Source of the DNA: a virus
Direction: 5' to 3' (one strand)
DNA length: 17,687 nucleotides
UHGV virus genome: UHGV-0085586
The notes below the pieces were generated by a model. The model did no database searches. It saw only the letters and a program-made list of their open reading frames with translations, and had not been told where the DNA came from. This document shows positions 2,972 to 8,945 of the stretch, piece by piece; position 1 is the stretch's first letter, and every line of letters begins with the position of its first letter. Both the position numbers and the translations under genes were made by a program.

Positions 2972-4368
2972 AATAAACGCTCCATTTTACTGCCCGACAT
3001 GCGGTTATTGCTGTATCTGCGCGGATTGCCCGGCGTCATGGGTGTGGAAAGAACCCGGGCACTCTCCTGGTCCACAGGCAGAAAATGTCCGTTATGAAAA
3101 CGCCGGTAAATGGTCCCGAGCGTGCCATTACGCTGTTTCGTGATGTTGATTTCTGCTATGCCTCTGGCCTGAGTTTCCGGGTTGTATACCTCATCCCTGT
3201 AAAGCATCAGAATGATGTCGGCATCCGCCTCGATTTCCCCGGAGTTTTTCAGGTCCGAGTTCATTGGGCGTTTATTGGGTCTGGATTCCACGCCGCGGGA
3301 GAGCTGGCTCAGAGCAATCAGCGGAAAACCGCCGGATTTTGCCAGGCTTTTAAGTCCCTTTGAGATTTCCCCCACCGCAAGGTCGTGACGCCCCGTGCTG
3401 CGGGTTTTAATCAGGCCGAGGTAATCGACCACCACCAGCGCCGTTTCCGGGTGTTTCATCCGGTGGTGCTTCGTGGTTGCACATATCTCATCAATGGTCA
3501 GGTTTGCCTGGTCCACCATCCAGATATTACGCCCCGTCATTCGTCCCACGCCCTGCGAGAAACGCGCCCAGTCTTCATCTTCAAAACGGGCAACAGACTT
3601 AAGACGGGATACCGGCATTCCACCGGCAGCAGACACCATACGTTCACCAATCTGGATGTTCGCCATCTCCATGGTGAACAGAAGCACGCCATGCCCCTGC
3701 TCAGTCACCTTGTCGATGATGTCCAGCGCAAGTTCGGTTTTCCCCATCGAAGGACGGGCGGCAATGAATACCAGGTCTCCGGGCTCCATACCGCCCGTTT
3801 TTGCGTCCAGTTCATCAATACCGGTCATCAGCGCCCTGGATTTCTCCAGTCCCTGATTGCGGCATTCAACACGGTCGACCACTTCCGGAAGGACATCATC
3901 AATGTGAACCGGCTGAATGACGCCCTTTCCGGTCGACAGTGAGGCCATCATGTTCTGCGCATCCTTCAGGGCATCCTCGGCTGCTTCACAGGTATACGCA
4001 TCACGTAAATTCTGTAATGCTTCAGTCAGTGTTTTTTCTGCATCGCGCAGTGCGGCATTGCGCCGTAACGCTGCGACATAGTGCTCCAGTGAAGACTTCA
4101 CCCAGGTTTTGCGTCCGGTGTCGGTAATCACCGGGGCAAGTTCCGGCATCTCATTGCACAGCAGTACGGGGTCAATGACGCCGGATATGCGAGCCTGTCT
4201 GCAAATCCCCGCGTAAATATCCCGGTACTGACGCACAAAAAATACATCCGCCGGAAGTGTGGTCAGAATATCCATCACTTCCGGATCGGCCCCACGCAGA
4301 AAAAACGCACCGATGACAGCGCCTTCCAGGTCATCGTTACGCCATGCCGGGGTGTTCTGGCTGGTCAT
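2968..4368 (-). CDS. DnaB-family replicative DNA helicase
   Basis: 466 aa; ATG at 4366-4368 (minus) preceded by GGAGGTG. RecA-like C-terminal domain with Walker A-like ARPSMGKTELALD and typical DnaB motifs (GIDELD...GGMEPGDLV..., LSQLSRGVESR). Confidence 0.9.
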   Translation of the reverse strand: MTSQNTPAWRNDDLEGAVIGAFFLRGADPEVMDILTTLPADVFFVRQYRDIYAGICRQARISGVIDPVLLCNEMPELAPVITDTGRKTWVKSSLEHYVAALRRNAALRDAEKTLTEALQNLRDAYTCEAAEDALKDAQNMMASLSTGKGVIQPVHIDDVLPEVVDRVECRNQGLEKSRALMTGIDELDAKTGGMEPGDLVFIAARPSMGKTELALDIIDKVTEQGHGVLLFTMEMANIQIGERMVSAAGGMPVSRLKSVARFEDEDWARFSQGVGRMTGRNIWMVDQANLTIDEICATTKHHRMKHPETALVVVDYLGLIKTRSTGRHDLAVGEISKGLKSLAKSGGFPLIALSQLSRGVESRPNKRPMNSDLKNSGEIEADADIILMLYRDEVYNPETQARGIAEINITKQRNGTLGTIYRRFHNGHFLPVDQESARVLSTPMTPGNPRRYSNNRMSGSKMERLF

Positions 4369-5274: not shown

Positions 5275-6201
5275 TCAGAATGTCAATTTGTTACTGGATT
5301 TACCGAATTTGTCAGACATGGCTCCCAGGCCAGCCAGGACATCGACCTGTCGCTGTCGCCCACCTCCGTGAGCGGCTGGCTGTTGCCAGTAATCTTCGAA
5401 GTGACGATCGGGTCCAAAGAACGTCGCAGCCTGCTTCACGAACTGTGTGCCGGTATTTCCTGTAGCACGTACCCAGGCGGCATACCGCTTCACGCCATCA
5501 AGCATGGTCTCCGGTTTTATTCCCTCCCTGATACGGGCTTTCCAGGCTTTGAAGGCTGCTGACTTGGAATTGCCACCAGCACGTTTGGGATATTCCTGCC
5601 AGGCCTGTTCAAATTCCGGTGAATATTCCTGTCTGGCAGAACGCGCTGGTGCAGACGCGTCAGCGGATGCGCCAATATCTTGCGGTTCATGTTTTGAATT
5701 TACTGGTGGTTCATGTTTTAAACCTTGTGGATCTGGAGTCAGATTCTGAAGGGTCAAACGCGTATTTTTGCCAGAATCTGAAGGGTCAAACACGCCTGAA
5801 CATACAGATTCTGACGGTTCAGATTTTGAAGGTTCAGAATCTGAAGGGTCACGTAATACTGAAAGTCTGCGCTGCTGTTTCAGTTCTGCAACCTTATCCC
5901 GCTCAGTTCTGGCAAGCTGCTCAAGCCGATCAGCATTCAGATGATAAAGATTGGACGTATTACGGTTACCTTTGCGGCGTGACTGACGCGTCAGCCAGCC
6001 ATCAGCCTCCAGTTCGGAGATTGCCGTTCTGACTGTACTTTCTCCCAATCCAAGCTGTCGACATATGGTTTCAACACCCGGGTAGCACACCCCGTCATCA
6101 TTCGAATAATCAGCCAGGCGCGCCATAATCATCAGTTTTGCACCTTTGACGCCATATGCTGCGCATGCATCCCAGACATTACCGAGGATCTTGCTACTCA
6201 T
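5275..6201 (-). CDS. Replication initiator (lambda O-like) with N-terminal winged-helix domain
   Basis: 308 aa; ATG at 6199-6201 (minus) preceded by GGGAGGTG. N-terminal HTH (...GVCYPGVETICRQLGLGESTVRTAISELEADGWL...). Central repetitive DPSDSEPSKSEPSES segment coincides with the DNA iterons, as for lambda O/ori. Confidence 0.8.
   Translation of the reverse strand: MSSKILGNVWDACAAYGVKGAKLMIMARLADYSNDDGVCYPGVETICRQLGLGESTVRTAISELEADGWLTRQSRRKGNRNTSNLYHLNADRLEQLARTERDKVAELKQQRRLSVLRDPSDSEPSKSEPSESVCSGVFDPSDSGKNTRLTLQNLTPDPQGLKHEPPVNSKHEPQDIGASADASAPARSARQEYSPEFEQAWQEYPKRAGGNSKSAAFKAWKARIREGIKPETMLDGVKRYAAWVRATGNTGTQFVKQAATFFGPDRHFEDYWQQPAAHGGGRQRQVDVLAGLGAMSDKFGKSSNKLTF
5684..5853. repeat. Candidate phage replication origin: five iterons plus a flanking duplicated AT-rich motif, inside the initiator gene
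   Basis: Iterons AGAWTYTGAMGGKTC at 5741-5760, 5774-5795, 5806-5820, 5821-5837 and 5836-5850; duplicated ggttcatgtttt at 5684-5695 and 5708-5719. Confidence 0.6.
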
Positions 6202-6422
6202 ACGACACCTCCCAGACGCTTAAACATTTTTCCGGACTGAAACGCCACCAGCGGGTAACTCAGGGTATAAGTACGCCCCTGCACCTGGCAGACAACCTTC
6301 TGACTTTCTGCATTGACCAGGCAAACCCGCAGAACGAGGCCGTTGCTGGTGGTAAACCACTGCCCCACTCGGGGGCAACGGTTGTATCGGTGATACAGGA
6401 AATTAACGATGTGGCGGATCAT
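6198..6422 (-). CDS. Hypothetical small protein (74 aa)
   Basis: ATG at 6420-6422 (minus) preceded by GGAGGTG; stop overlaps the initiator start (ATGA coupling). Sits in the cII-equivalent position; no recognisable motif. Confidence 0.6.
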   Translation of the reverse strand: MIRHIVNFLYHRYNRCPRVGQWFTTSNGLVLRVCLVNAESQKVVCQVQGRTYTLSYPLVAFQSGKMFKRLGGVV

Positions 6423-6613
6423 GGACGCACCTCCGCCGTAGTTACGTATTTAACCGGGCTACCTTTCATTGAGATGGTTTCACACATCTCTGCCGCTTTC
6501 AGTTCCGCTGTTTTTCTGGATTTATAGCGACGGTGCCAGACAGATACATCCGTGCGAACTGATACATCGTTTCTGTATTCCGTAGTGGAGATGATGATTT
6601 CGTAACTAATCAT
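6419..6613 (-). CDS. Hypothetical small protein (64 aa)
   Basis: ATG at 6611-6613 (minus) preceded by AGGAGG at 7 nt; ATGA overlaps with both neighbours. Confidence 0.55.
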   Translation of the reverse strand: MISYEIIISTTEYRNDVSVRTDVSVWHRRYKSRKTAELKAAEMCETISMKGSPVKYVTTAEVRP

Positions 6614-7173
6614 GGGCGAACCTCCTTGTCAGAACCATTCAGCCTGGAATCAACAAGTGCAGCGCCAAAAACAGCATCACCAACACGGTCGTACAGTTTG
6701 CTAGCCAGCGGAGATTCAACGGCCTTAAGCATTGGATAAAGCTGGCTTGTCCAGATTTGATGGATTTCACGCAAATGCAGGTATACGCCTCTGGCGTTTC
6801 GTGCGACAGCTGACATATCAGACGCATCGGCACCTGATAAACTCTTCTCCATCAGGTTAAAGGCGTTGATGTATGCCTCTTTGAACCGGGCAGCACGTTT
6901 ACCCGTGAAACCCATAGCAAGAAATGCAAAACCGTCTCGTGTGATTTGATAGCAAGGGAGCTTGCGTGTACCACCGTTCGGTTGATTTACCGAAATCGAT
7001 GTCTCCGCAAAATTGCGGGCACAAAACTCAGGGGAACAATCCAGAGTGCGGATCTTTTTCAGCACATCGTCGTGACGCTTGGAGAAGAAGTTGGCAACAG
7101 CCAAAGAAGTGGTAACGGCCTGGCCGTTGTCAATGGTGATTTCAGGTTGAGTGAGGGCTGGGATCGTAGCCAT
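6610..7173 (-). CDS. Rha-family phage regulatory protein (antirepressor-like), copy 3
   Basis: 187 aa from internal ATG at 7171-7173, 8 nt after GGAGG. Rha-type signature begins here (NGQAVTTSLAVANFFSKRHDDVLKKIR...YQITRDGFAFLAMGFTGKRAARFKEAYINAFNLME). The track ORF extends to 7470 through the leader; see findings. Confidence 0.75.
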   Translation of the reverse strand: MATIPALTQPEITIDNGQAVTTSLAVANFFSKRHDDVLKKIRTLDCSPEFCARNFAETSISVNQPNGGTRKLPCYQITRDGFAFLAMGFTGKRAARFKEAYINAFNLMEKSLSGADASDMSAVARNARGVYLHLREIHQIWTSQLYPMLKAVESPLASKLYDRVGDAVFGAALVDSRLNGSDKEVRP

Positions 7174-7470
7174 GATGGCAGCCTCCGTTGACAGTGAAAA
7201 ACTTCCACCACCGGAAACGCCAATTCCACTGGTGGTGAACTGGACGGGGTTGGCGTAACCGGCGTCAACGGAGACCGGCGCACCTTTCGGTGCCCCCGCC
7301 CAGCCCACCATAATCTGGATGTGAGCAAATGCGGACGATAAAAAAGACGCTGGCGCGTCATACATCGCCGTTGACAATTTCAGGACGCCAATCCCGGCAC
7401 CCGCTTTATAAGGTGCCTGAGCAGTGTAACGTCCCGAAATTGCAGAATCAATATGCTGGTGGCGGATCAT
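7174..7470 (-). promoter_or_regulatory. Structured leader copy A (c4-like tripartite RNA element: promoter-like site, terminator hairpin, GNRA hairpin, anti-SD, SD)
   Basis: Minus-strand TTGATT-17-TACACT (plus 7446-7451 / 7423-7428); hairpin gacgcGCCAgcgtc + U6 (plus 7340-7359); GAAA-loop hairpin (7280-7293); GUCAACGG at 7368-7377 and at the SD (7183-7192); complementary CCGUUGAC at 7262-7271. Confidence 0.6.
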
Positions 7471-7829
7471 AGGTGCACCTCCCGTTGATTACGACGGAAC
7501 GCGGAGTGACCCTGGACGGTTTCAGCCTCATGGAATGCTTCAATACAGCTCTCGTAGTACCGCATTGTGCGCAGACTTAACCCAAGCTGAAGCATCATCA
7601 GACCATCAAGGGTGATGTAATAACCACGCAGGGAGTCACCGTAGATGTGATAAGTACCCGGTATGAAATTGCGGGTAAAAAACTCGCGTGAGCAGTTCAG
7701 ATACTCGATTTTGTCAACGATGTTCTGGTGCATGCGCTTGAAATGGCAGGCAACATGCAGGGAGAAAATAACGGCCTTGCCGTTGACGACTTCGATTTTT
7801 AGGAATGGGGAAGTTAGGACAGTAGCCAT
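7467..7829 (-). CDS. Rha-family phage regulatory protein (short, antirepressor-like), copy 2
   Basis: 120 aa from internal ATG at 7827-7829 preceded by the same ACGGAGGCTGCCATC-ATG context as copy 3. Rha-like block (...GKAVIFSLHVACHFKRMHQNIVDKI...YYITLDGLMMLQLG...). Stop overlaps the leader-A ATG at 7470. Confidence 0.7.
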   Translation of the reverse strand: MATVLTSPFLKIEVVNGKAVIFSLHVACHFKRMHQNIVDKIEYLNCSREFFTRNFIPGTYHIYGDSLRGYYITLDGLMMLQLGLSLRTMRYYESCIEAFHEAETVQGHSAFRRNQREVHL

Positions 7830-8129
7830 GATGGCAGCCTCCGTATGCAATGGATAACTTCCACCACCGGAGCTGCGAAACTCATGGGTGGTGAACTGAA
7901 CAGGGTTCGCAGTACCGGCGCATACGGAAACCGGCGAGCCTTTCGGCTCCCCTGCCCAGCCCACCATAATTCTGGCGTGCGTGAGCGCGGACGATAAAAA
8001 AGACGCTGGCGCGTCATATATCGCCGTATGCAATTCCGGGCTGCGACCCCCGGCACCCGCTTTATAAGGTGCAGAGACAGTGTAACGTCCCGAAATTGCA
8101 GAATCAATATTTGGTCTTGAAATGATCAT
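7830..8129 (-). promoter_or_regulatory. Structured leader copy B (paralogous to copy A, altered pairing specificity)
   Basis: Same architecture: promoter-like TTGATT-17-TACACT (plus 8102-8107 / 8079-8084), terminator hairpin + U6 (7996-8015), GAAA hairpin (7936-7949). The three elements read GCAUACGG (8024-8031 and 7841-7848) versus CCGUAUGC (7920-7927). Confidence 0.6.
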
Positions 8130-8213
8130 ATAGCTGCTGATATCTTTAGAACTGTTCTTGGATGTTTCGGAGCCGTTTTATGCGAAACAGCTCCCCGTTA
8201 TTGATGTTGAGTG

Positions 8214-8238
8214 AGCCGGGTTACTCCCGGCTTTTTTT
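8214..8238 (+). terminator. Plus-strand-oriented intrinsic terminator-like hairpin between antirepressor genes (orphan)
   Basis: Stem agccggg (8214-8220) / cccggct (8226-8232), loop ttact, followed by T7 on the plus strand (8232-8238). On the minus strand an A-run precedes it, so it is not a minus-strand terminator. A second hairpin lies at 8168-8195. Confidence 0.4.
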
Positions 8239-8945
8239 CACCGCTGCCAACCAATAACCTGAAATAACCCCATTTTCGGGTGATACCAGCGAGTCCCTCG
8301 CGGTTCTGCTTCCTCCATAACCCGATAAAAAGCAGCCATAAACGGTTCCACAGCAACAATTGCGCGACGTGACAACAATCCGTCCGGCGTCATGAACTCA
8401 TGTGTATCTGTAGGAATTTGATAGGCGTTCACCAGATTGCGGCATTTATCATCTGACAAACCGGTTTTTGCTTTCAGTTGGCGATATCCGGCATAGCCCT
8501 CACGAATAGTGCCCTTTTTAATTTGCTCGACTGTTTCAGCAACGTGGCTGACTTTTTCTTCCACCTGAGTGATCCGTTTCTGTTGGCGAACGGCTTCAAG
8601 AGCCATCGCGGCAACCATTTCGATTTCGCTCATTGGCTTACGGATCTGTTCTTCCAGTTCGCGCCAGCGATCTACCAGGCGAGCTGTGAATTCAGGACAG
8701 AGCTGTGCGACGACAATGATGCTGTCGCGCTTACCTTGTTCACCTTCGAATACATACGCGCTAGAAAATCGGCGAGGCCCAAGTGATTGTTTATTCTCAA
8801 TTTCCACAGTCTGTGGAAATTGGATGATTCCCTTTTTAGCCAGTGTTTCAATAGTTCTCTTAACACTATCTGGTCGGCTTCCCACCAGCTCTGCGATCTC
8901 AACGCTGGTCATGGATGCTTTGCCGTTAAAAATTGCGGTGTTCAT
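8238..8945 (-). CDS. Phage regulatory protein, Rha/antirepressor family with C-terminal extension, copy 1
   Basis: 235 aa; ATG at 8943-8945 (minus), 7 nt after AGGAGA. N-terminal MTSVEIAELVGSRPDSVKRTIETL... and ...VVAQLCPEFTARLVDRWRELEEQ resemble phage antirepressor DNA-binding domains. Confidence 0.75.
   Translation of the reverse strand: MNTAIFNGKASMTSVEIAELVGSRPDSVKRTIETLAKKGIIQFPQTVEIENKQSLGPRRFSSAYVFEGEQGKRDSIIVVAQLCPEFTARLVDRWRELEEQIRKPMSEIEMVAAMALEAVRQQKRITQVEEKVSHVAETVEQIKKGTIREGYAGYRQLKAKTGLSDDKCRNLVNAYQIPTDTHEFMTPDGLLSRRAIVAVEPFMAAFYRVMEEAEPRGTRWYHPKMGLFQVIGWQR

Follow-up and report, generated by a model that had tools for sequence, protein, structure and literature searches.

The window analysed here, a 17,687-nucleotide (nt) stretch of DNA from the virus genome UHGV-0085586, contains two tandem open reading frames (ORFs) for Rha-family proteins, each of which opens with about 100 codons that overlie a set of RNA genes. 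We consider it reasonably probable that these are two tandem RNA immunity cassettes of the type found in P4, placed in an Escherichia coli lambdoid early operon, in which a short form of Rha is locked at an internal start and a long frame, running across the RNA genes, is read through by ribosomes. Each leader matches two Rfam families, protein-level constraint begins only at the internal ATG, and the frame that joins the leader to Rha is kept almost entirely free of stops in related leaders. The two long ORFs, the ORFs nested in their leaders and the starts at issue lie as follows in the window.

6610..7470, minus strand: Rha ORF copy 2, long form, 286 amino acids (aa).
7467..8129, minus strand: Rha ORF copy 1, long form, 220 aa.
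7059..7361 (100 aa) and 7814..8107 (97 aa), minus strand: second-frame ORFs in the leaders.
8127..8129, minus strand: upstream ATG of the copy 1 long ORF, 22 nt upstream of the -35 hexamer.
7468..7470, minus strand: upstream ATG of the copy 2 long ORF, overlapping the cassette 1 TGA (ATGA).
7467..7829, minus strand: short Rha-like gene of cassette 1, from the internal ATG at 7829-7827, 120 aa, N-terminal Rha domain only.
6610..7173, minus strand: Rha gene of cassette 2, from the internal ATG at 7173-7171, 187 aa.

The leaders share a direct repeat of 294 nt (7161-7454 and 7817-8110, 80% identity). A first-pass annotation, made from the letters and a list of ORFs, had held that noncoding leaders are fused in frame to Rha genes whose true starts are internal, and its description of the region was accurate in most respects. 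Both ORFs are present, as is the second open frame in both copies, and the N-terminal 100 and 99 codons are indeed rich in Gly, Ala and Ser (38% and 42%, compared with 17% and 26% in the Rha parts). Between the two leader copies identity is 79.7% at the nucleotide level and 72.8% at the amino-acid level, with differences falling 20/16/20 over codon positions 1/2/3, which is the non-conservative divergence that had been described. Also as described, the ATG at 7470 has a Shine-Dalgarno (SD) sequence, GGGAGGTG, 5 nt upstream, and the extensions differ by a single codon (100 and 99); the additional codon is found ahead of the -35 hexamer, outside the repeat.

In each leader isrK is followed by C4, with Rfam scores of 58.8 and 62.2 bits for isrK (gathering score 50) and 83.3 and 81.4 bits for C4 (gathering score 45). 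The E-values of the four matches (2e-15, 5.7e-15, 1.8e-11 and 1.3e-10) are far beyond chance, as is the repeat. It has already been noted that IsrK is P4 seqA and C4 the P4 CI RNA, and that IsrK-C4 systems occur in lambdoid prophages (PMC3632133, PMC4825925, PMC10111431). The elements of the two cassettes are these.

8079..8107, minus strand: putative cassette 1 promoter, TTGATT 8107-8102, 17-nt spacer, TACACT 8084-8079.
7996..8072, minus strand: isrK-1 (RF01394, homologue of P4 seqA), from Rfam.
8032-8024, minus strand: isrK-1 seqA-like target TGCATACGG.
8015-8002, minus strand: isrK-1 intrinsic terminator stem, with a T-run after the stem.
7884..7971, minus strand: C4-1 antisense RNA (RF01695, homologue of the P4 CI RNA), from Rfam.
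7930-7919, minus strand: C4-1 specificity loop TTTCCGTATGCG.
7838..7849, minus strand: cassette 1 seqC-like target TGCATACGGAGG, fully complementary to the C4-1 loop and containing the SD GGAGG.
7423..7451, minus strand: putative cassette 2 promoter, TTGATT 7451-7446, 17-nt spacer, TACACT 7428-7423.
7340..7416, minus strand: isrK-2, from Rfam.
7376-7368, minus strand: isrK-2 seqA-like target TGTCAACGG.
7359-7346, minus strand: isrK-2 intrinsic terminator stem, with a T-run after the stem.
7228..7315, minus strand: C4-2 antisense RNA, from Rfam.
7274-7263, minus strand: C4-2 loop TCTCCGTTGACG.
7182..7193, minus strand: cassette 2 seqC-like target TGTCAACGGAGG, complementary to the C4-2 loop and containing the SD GGAGG.
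7967-7965 and 7311-7309, minus strand: conserved ATG at the 5' edge of C4, in frame with Rha, at the position of the +107 start of Gifsy-1 orf45.

The two terminator stems of this list correspond to the terminator hairpin that the first-pass annotation had placed in the leaders. The hexamer pair TTGATT-N17-TACACT stands 6 nt upstream of each IsrK 5' end, inside the long ORF, and aligns with the Gifsy-1 isrK promoter region and with a -10 hexamer annotated at the equivalent position of the P4 record, which we take to be PLE. Homologues were gathered by a DNA pattern, not by protein, and then with nhmmer, giving 73 unique full-length leaders; P4 and Gifsy-1 stand outside the tables of these 73 and were analysed separately. 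A second, broader sample comprises 90 leaders picked by the C4 5' stem motif. Across 38 unique leaders no change occurs in the -35 and -10 hexamers, the SD or the ATG, and leader homology begins at the -35, the sequence just upstream being the most variable of the region. Every position of the C4 stems is paired in 32 unique sequences, with compensatory double changes at 13 of the 27 pairs, and pairing drops to 29-49% when the 3' partner is shifted. These comparisons indicate that each long ORF holds an intrinsic terminator and two structured RNAs, along with a putative promoter.

The 12-nt C4 loop is complementary in both copies to a 9-nt site at about position 41 of IsrK. In homologues it is also complementary to a site of 9-12 nt that overlaps the GGAGG of the internal start, and in both window copies this second match covers 12 nt; the GGAGG elements (7842-7838 and 7186-7182) are each separated from the internal ATG by an 8-nt spacer. 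Among the homologous leaders the loop, the IsrK site and the SD target covary, in at least 17 specificity classes, and in every case 8-10 nt separate the end of the downstream target from the ATG. Cassette 1 carries the loop UUUCCGUAUGCG with the targets UGCAUACGG and UGCAUACGGAGG, and cassette 2 the loop UCUCCGUUGACG with the targets UGUCAACGG and UGUCAACGGAGG. Duplexes between loop and SD have energies of -16.7 and -18.9 kcal/mol for the cognate pairs, compared with -8.5 and -10.3 kcal/mol for the non-cognate ones. Since the loop and target sequences differ between the cassettes, these would form two separate locks that should not cross-react. The pairing pattern indicates that the internal GGAGG-ATG is a real, RNA-regulated start. 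Tandem arrays of two cassettes (three in L026) are seen in the window and in L001, L002, L005, L018, L019, L026, L067 and L084, the cassettes being joined by a conserved junction, GGGAGGTGCAnCnATGA.

Protein-level selection begins at the same internal ATG. Downstream of it, third-position diversity is about three times that of the other positions. The ratio of nonsynonymous to synonymous polymorphism (pN/pS) is 0.17 for the 120-aa gene, with a threefold third-position excess among 15 homologues, and 0.13-0.26 in most groups of the 181-187-aa Rha genes (0.53 in one group of n=3). For the leader the ORF frame gives 0.83 (0.98 in the promoter and IsrK part, 0.71 in the C4 part) and the off-frames 0.77 and 0.89; leader values across analyses are about 0.8-1.06, and diversity is flat over codon positions. 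Tests of pN/pS in three frames across homologous leaders found no protein-level purifying selection and no third-position excess on the leader-encoded part. The comparison of leader and Rha selection that the first-pass annotation had proposed therefore finds constraint only downstream of the internal ATG. Because constraint starts there and is absent in the leader, we regard the internal ATGs as genuine starts and the leader as carrying no selected peptide. In an AlphaFold2 model of the 286-aa ORF, residues 1-110 have a predicted local distance difference test (pLDDT) score of 20-30 and no secondary structure, compared with 46-79 for the Rha part; this is weak support only, because the alignment was shallow (34 sequences) and overall confidence low (mean pLDDT 48).

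The domain matches are in keeping with such starts. Pfam pRha (PF09669) matches copy 2 with 96.3 bits over residues 21-110, and copy 1 with 30.0 bits in the short ORF (cut-off 29.9) and 28 bits within the long ORF. The Pfam domain begins 21-23 residues after the internal Met, so that the earlier statement that Rha homology starts exactly at an ATG preceded by GGAGG, although right about the GGAGG-ATG in both copies, was a slight overstatement. A similarly short N-terminal offset, 12 residues, is found in the leaderless Rha paralogue at 8238..8945. The same leader also precedes unrelated genes, including Rha, ORF6N (Gifsy-1 AnrP), ORF6N with P22_AR_C, AntA, a kil-like 64-aa ORF and a 77-aa ORF.

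The leaders nevertheless match a protein family, PF10554 (Phage_ASH), with 57-64 bits alone and 63-75 bits in the full-length ORFs (cut-off 26), and RefSeq and Pfam treat them as protein, either as an 'ash family protein' or as a Rha regulator of 283-286 aa with PF10554. This family originates from a P4 ORF that was first called 'put. ash gene (aa 1-137)', later 'cI gene product', and that overlies the CI RNA. The absence of protein-level selection in the leader argues that the Pfam 'Ash domain' is a translation of RNA genes. In the P4 record (L124, 776-1375 and 1368-1655) PF10554 matches the cI/ash/eta ORF, and epsilon matches PF25738 instead. A survey of P4-like satellites uses PF10554 as an epsilon marker (PMC8628076); as PF10554 matches the ORF over the CI RNA, that marker detects the immunity-RNA region. 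More generally, the module is annotated incompatibly in LC710660 (L126), NC_000902 (L127), NC_010392 (L123) and the RefSeq loci L001 and L002, the forms being isrK and C4 as noncoding RNAs (ncRNAs) with a short coding sequence (CDS), a separate small ORF over the ant start, and one long RefSeq ash/Rha protein. The Gifsy-1 record has nothing annotated over the leader, and its downstream CDS starts at the internal ATG. LC710660 annotates isrK and C4 as ncRNAs and the CDS from the internal ATG, as the first-pass annotation had proposed.

While no peptide appears to be selected in the leader, its reading frame does. Between the -35 and the gene ATG, the frame joined to Rha contains a stop in only 1 of the 73 unique leaders; stops interrupt the other two frames in 58 and in all 73, at 39 and 59 distinct positions, leaving them open in 15 and 0 leaders. 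Under a column-shuffle null the probability of an open frame is 0.63 for leaders of lambdoid type and 0.26 for those of P4 type, and 33 of 33 and 12 of 12, respectively, were observed to be open. In about 60 of the 73, the C4-5' ATG and the gene ATG are 138, 141, 135 or 144 nt apart, each a multiple of 3, and length variants are mostly multiples of 3. In most junction types, and in many unrelated contexts, the start codon of the long ORF overlaps, as NTGA, the stop of an upstream ORF of 67-332 aa, including every tandem junction like that at 7470, which reads GGGAGGTGCAnCnATGA. The broader sample gives a similar picture for part of the family: 46 of the 90 leaders are open through the promoter, and 43 of those run past the gene ATG, so that openness upstream and downstream is strongly linked (43/46 vs 6/44, in counts that ignore kinship). 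These observations indicate that one large sub-group, to which the window belongs, has openness as a coordinated property, and that six-frame reading does not by itself explain the in-frame fusion. The earlier view of a noncoding leader with internal starts is thus partly supported: it holds insofar as the leader contains RNA genes and no peptide constraint, and is incomplete insofar as it made the fusion just an artefact.

The second open frame (7059..7361 and 7814..8107) was considered as a gene and rejected, being the one that is open in 15 of the 73 leaders with stops at 39 distinct positions. In L010, L158 and L200 the spacer between SD and ATG is 1 nt shorter, so that the conserved ATG falls in another frame and begins an ORF of 81 aa; the leader frame runs on for about 1.1 kb into an integrase-like ORF. 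In L059 (about 3127-3790) the gene that follows the first leader breaks off after some 20 codons and continues in frame into a second, divergent leader and a Rha-like gene, and the resulting 243-aa ORF looks like it contains a recombination remnant.

On these grounds we propose that each cassette is laid out as a promoter, IsrK with its terminator, C4, a target that overlaps the SD, and the Rha-family ATG. Transcripts from the cassette promoter would lack the upstream ATG and offer the internal ATG as their only Rha start; the short form would be a product of 120 aa from ATG 7829 and of 187 aa from ATG 7173. In a lysogen, the cassette promoters would make terminated IsrK together with some read-through RNA that yields C4. 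The C4 loop would then pair with the Rha SD and lock the start, with IsrK competing for the same loop. Early transcripts would come from a candidate promoter at 9234-9206, beside a cI-like gene, and ribosomes on such upstream transcripts may enter the long frame of cassette 2 at the ATGA at 7470. As the frame is kept free of stops, ribosomes arriving from upstream can translate across the RNAs, and long-frame translation that crosses promoter, terminator and C4 would hinder both hairpin formation and Rho loading. A passage in PMC5021804 gives it as a general principle that a ribosome prevents terminator hairpins from forming and Rho from loading. Termination and the antisense lock would in this way be overridden, and expression carried on to the ATGA-coupled replication genes. 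The stop-free frame probably serves ribosome read-through, as in P4; promoter activity, long-frame translation and anti-termination are inferred by homology.

A further step, which we offer only tentatively, is that the 'Ash domain' is an obligatorily open ribosome track in which the absence of stops is all that is selected, and which acts, in lambdoid prophages as in P4, as a discriminator of the promoter from which a transcript originates, with tandem cassettes as serial, independently keyed locks. If this is true, ribosomes would read early-promoter transcripts through the lock, making them insensitive to immunity, while transcripts from the cassette promoters would be locked by C4, and the tandem locks (two here, three in L026) would act on the expression of both the antirepressor and the replication genes.

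Several observations weigh against a long frame that is read through in both copies and across the family. The ATG at 8129 has no SD and no overlap with an upstream gene; its nearest upstream in-frame stop is a TAA at 8180-8178, and the previous gene stops 108 nt earlier. For want of both an SD and an abutting upstream gene, the long form of copy 1 is doubtful, and it may never be made. The caveat of the first-pass annotation, that a translated leader ORF could exist, is probably the better reading for copy 2 and a doubtful one for copy 1. The putative promoter matches the consensus at 8 of 12 positions, which is why a sigma-70 scanner did not report it in either cassette. In the broader sample 44 of the 90 leaders are closed upstream by stops in the leader frame, and 38 of these also stop before the gene ATG; this closed group includes Gifsy-1, VT2-Sakai (with an in-frame stop) and the Stx phage F039. 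Read-through translation is therefore not universal for the module, and the existence of the closed group also means that the Ash peptide is dispensable for it. The split between open and closed leaders could partly be clade history, as the tests ignore kinship, and the relation between openness and an abutting upstream gene (nearest ORF of at least 60 aa) is blurred by spurious ORFs.

Some of the same points favour the main reading of the first-pass annotation, an account in which the leader is only noncoding RNA and translation starts at the internal ATGs alone, never at those of the long ORFs, which would be open merely because the RNA is conserved and rich in G+C. A leader pN/pS of about 1 without codon periodicity, a promoter and an intrinsic terminator inside the ORF, a second frame that is also open in both window copies, stops in about half of the broader sample, the lack of an SD at ATG 8129 and the annotation of LC710660 are all what this account would lead one to expect. 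It has more difficulty with one specific frame being stop-free in 72 of the 73 leaders of the window's clade, when the others are interrupted at 39 and 59 positions, with openness above the column-shuffle expectation, with length variants that are mostly multiples of 3, with ATGA overlaps that involve real upstream genes in many unrelated contexts, and with the link between upstream and downstream openness (43/46 vs 6/44). Moreover, P4 eta is reported to be translated and functional (PMC10111431). We consider this account unlikely, though it deserves to be kept in mind. The conventional annotation has one long protein in which a functional N-terminal Ash domain (PF10554) is fused to Rha and which starts at 8129 and 7470. 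The PF10554 match of 57-75 bits speaks for it, and the RefSeq pipeline PGAP and most gene callers call the long forms, PF10554 and PF09669 occurring together in 118 of the best 120 relatives. It is contradicted by the lack of amino-acid-level purifying selection on the Ash part, by pLDDT values of 20-30 without secondary structure, by the two structured RNAs under strong compensatory evolution that fully account for the segment, by the descent of the Ash family from a P4 ORF over the CI RNA, which is the real immunity factor, by the presence of the same leader before unrelated genes, and by stops in the leader of many homologues. We regard it as very improbable.

A third start, which the first-pass annotation had left out of account, has also to be weighed, as the C4-edge ATG (7967-7965 and 7311-7309) might be used in the way of Gifsy-1 orf45. 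Ribosomes would then start at this ATG and open the structure along 46 leader codons, the outcome here being Rha with 46 extra residues and/or internal initiation. The +107 AUG of Gifsy-1 is translated and needed for anrP translation (PMC4825925), the ATG is at the same place in 73 of 73 leaders, and the supplement of PMC4825925 remarks on an orf45-anrP fusion in Shigella dysenteriae. However, neither 7967 nor 7311 has a recognisable SD in front of it, and since the ATG lies within the conserved 5' flank of C4, a role in the RNA would be enough to account for its conservation. In 38 of the 44 closed leaders the ORF ends well before the gene ATG, so that coupling is not general, and the internal SD and ATG are invariant although a model of read-through alone would not need them. 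Use of this start appears improbable on balance; it could coexist with a locked short form and a long frame read through from 7470, which is the arrangement that we continue to prefer.

The cassettes stand in a chain of ATGA overlaps that runs from cassette 1 to cassette 2, through the small ORFs 6419..6613 and 6198..6422, to the replication genes; the stop of the cassette 2 Rha gene overlaps the ATG of the next gene (6419..6613). A junction motif, GGAGGTGC..ATGATCCGCCAC, recurs at three gene boundaries (7482-7459, 6625-6602 and 6434-6411), and this repeated junction may be a recombination scar of cassette insertion or duplication. Farther along, a 308-aa HTH_36 gene (5275..6201, minus strand) lies just upstream of genes whose counterparts in homologous loci carry the RefSeq names ATP-binding protein and replicative DNA helicase. 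Within it, positions 5740-5857 hold five direct copies of a unit of about 23 nt with overlapping inverted repeats, which look like origin iterons inside a replication-initiator gene. On the other side of the cassettes, a strong terminator-like hairpin, GAGCCGGGTTACTCCCGGCTT followed by TTTTT, is found on the plus strand at 8213-8233, the U-tail being absent on the minus strand; it lies in the 108 nt that separate cassette 1 from the leaderless Rha-family gene (8238..8945).

These results have consequences for annotation. Thousands of entries named 'Ash family protein' or 'Rha family regulator' (281-500 aa) have an N-terminal extension that is really a promoter and two regulatory RNAs. Gene callers miss the RNA genes and the regulated start, and comparative studies use PF10554 as a protein domain, one paper labelling it as P4 epsilon. 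The locus also illustrates clearly how a sequence under selection as RNA can still be kept translatable. It suggests that the P4 override by a long nested ORF also works in E. coli lambdoid prophages, just upstream of the replication genes, and the tandem cassettes with different specificities could affect induction and heteroimmunity. For P4 and Gifsy-1 the principle is already in the literature, and Rfam has the RNA families, so that a known principle is extended here and not changed. What is modestly new is the quantified lack of protein-level constraint in the 'Ash domain' alongside the avoidance of stops, and, likewise modestly, the breadth of loop-target covariation and the occurrence of tandem heterospecific cassettes in a lambdoid early operon.

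Three known systems come close to the region. In the immI region of P1 and P7 (c4-icd-ant1/ant2), the C4 antisense RNA, the founder of RF01695, pairs through its loops with the ribosome-binding site (RBS) region upstream of the antirepressor, and loop and target differences give heteroimmunity. In P1 both targets (a' and b') follow c4, and the RBS that is blocked is that of icd, a small ORF of its own coupled to ant. The window differs in having one target upstream in IsrK and the other at the Rha SD itself. The P1 arrangement with icd is not found: the SD target stands directly before the Rha ATG, the second target is in the upstream isrK, and there is no separate icd ORF between C4 and Rha.

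The isrK-orf45-anrP-isrJ locus of Salmonella Gifsy-1 (PMC4825925) has IsrK with a terminator, a C4-like processed RNA (STnc1160), an AUG at +107 and an antirepressor-type gene controlled via the leader, and complementarity of loop, seqA and SD is visible in the Gifsy-1 sequence. The +107 AUG is translated, as seen with an SPA tag, and its mutation or an inserted stop lowers anrP translation (Hershko-Shalev et al. 2016, PMC4825925); for Shigella dysenteriae, the supplement of that paper describes an orf45 that 'seems to be fused to anrP (287 aa)'. In Gifsy-1, however, the frame closes two codons before the +107 AUG, and the stop of orf45 forms an AUGA with the start of anrP, whereas the window frame is already open ahead of the promoter and continues into Rha with no stop after the +107 ATG. 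AnrP is also an ORF6N protein, not Rha, and its locus lies downstream of a Q gene rather than in an early operon. The orf45 architecture is consequently not that of the window, where the +107 ATG is in frame with Rha and no AUGA stop is present.

The immunity region of P4 (PLE-seqA-cI/seqB-seqC, with eta as the long and kil as the short product) is homologous in sequence to the window leaders, and not just analogous (nhmmer E=4e-63). The order of elements and the SD-ATG-GCT-AC gene start are alike, GGAGG-N8-ATG-GCT-AC being common with kil. In P4, too, the eta ATG at 776 overlaps the stop of ORF88/AlpA (ATGA), and its frame runs via PLE, seqA, CI and seqC to the kil stop; the long ORF matches PF10554 over residues 22-146, as the window leaders match this family. 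P4 differs in having the 65-aa kil downstream, where the window has Rha (187 or 120 aa), and an extra insert of about 40 nt between seqA and CI. The old 'ash/cI' ATG of P4 (L124, 958-975) lies within ATTATGGTGTGG, which resembles the conserved C4 5' edge AUUAUGGUGGG and stands 78 nt upstream of the real CI-like element; this site may be a partial duplication of the C4 5' end. Previous work established that P4 eta contains a constitutive internal promoter, that Kil is a truncated product of an internal start and that eta translation prevents termination (PMC10111431, summarising Forti et al. 1999), while full-length Eta is made only on transcripts of the late promoter upstream, with its translation coupled to the alpA homologue (PMC10111431). 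Upstream coupling of the eta type is present in copy 2 of the window (ATGA at 7470-7467, SD GGGAGGTG) and lacking in copy 1. The window departs from P4 in being a tandem duplicate with two specificities, in a lambdoid early operon upstream of replication genes and not in a satellite. Overall, the comparison indicates that the region belongs to the P4-type IsrK/C4 immunity modules and shares the nested eta/kil arrangement, with the coupling in copy 2 only.

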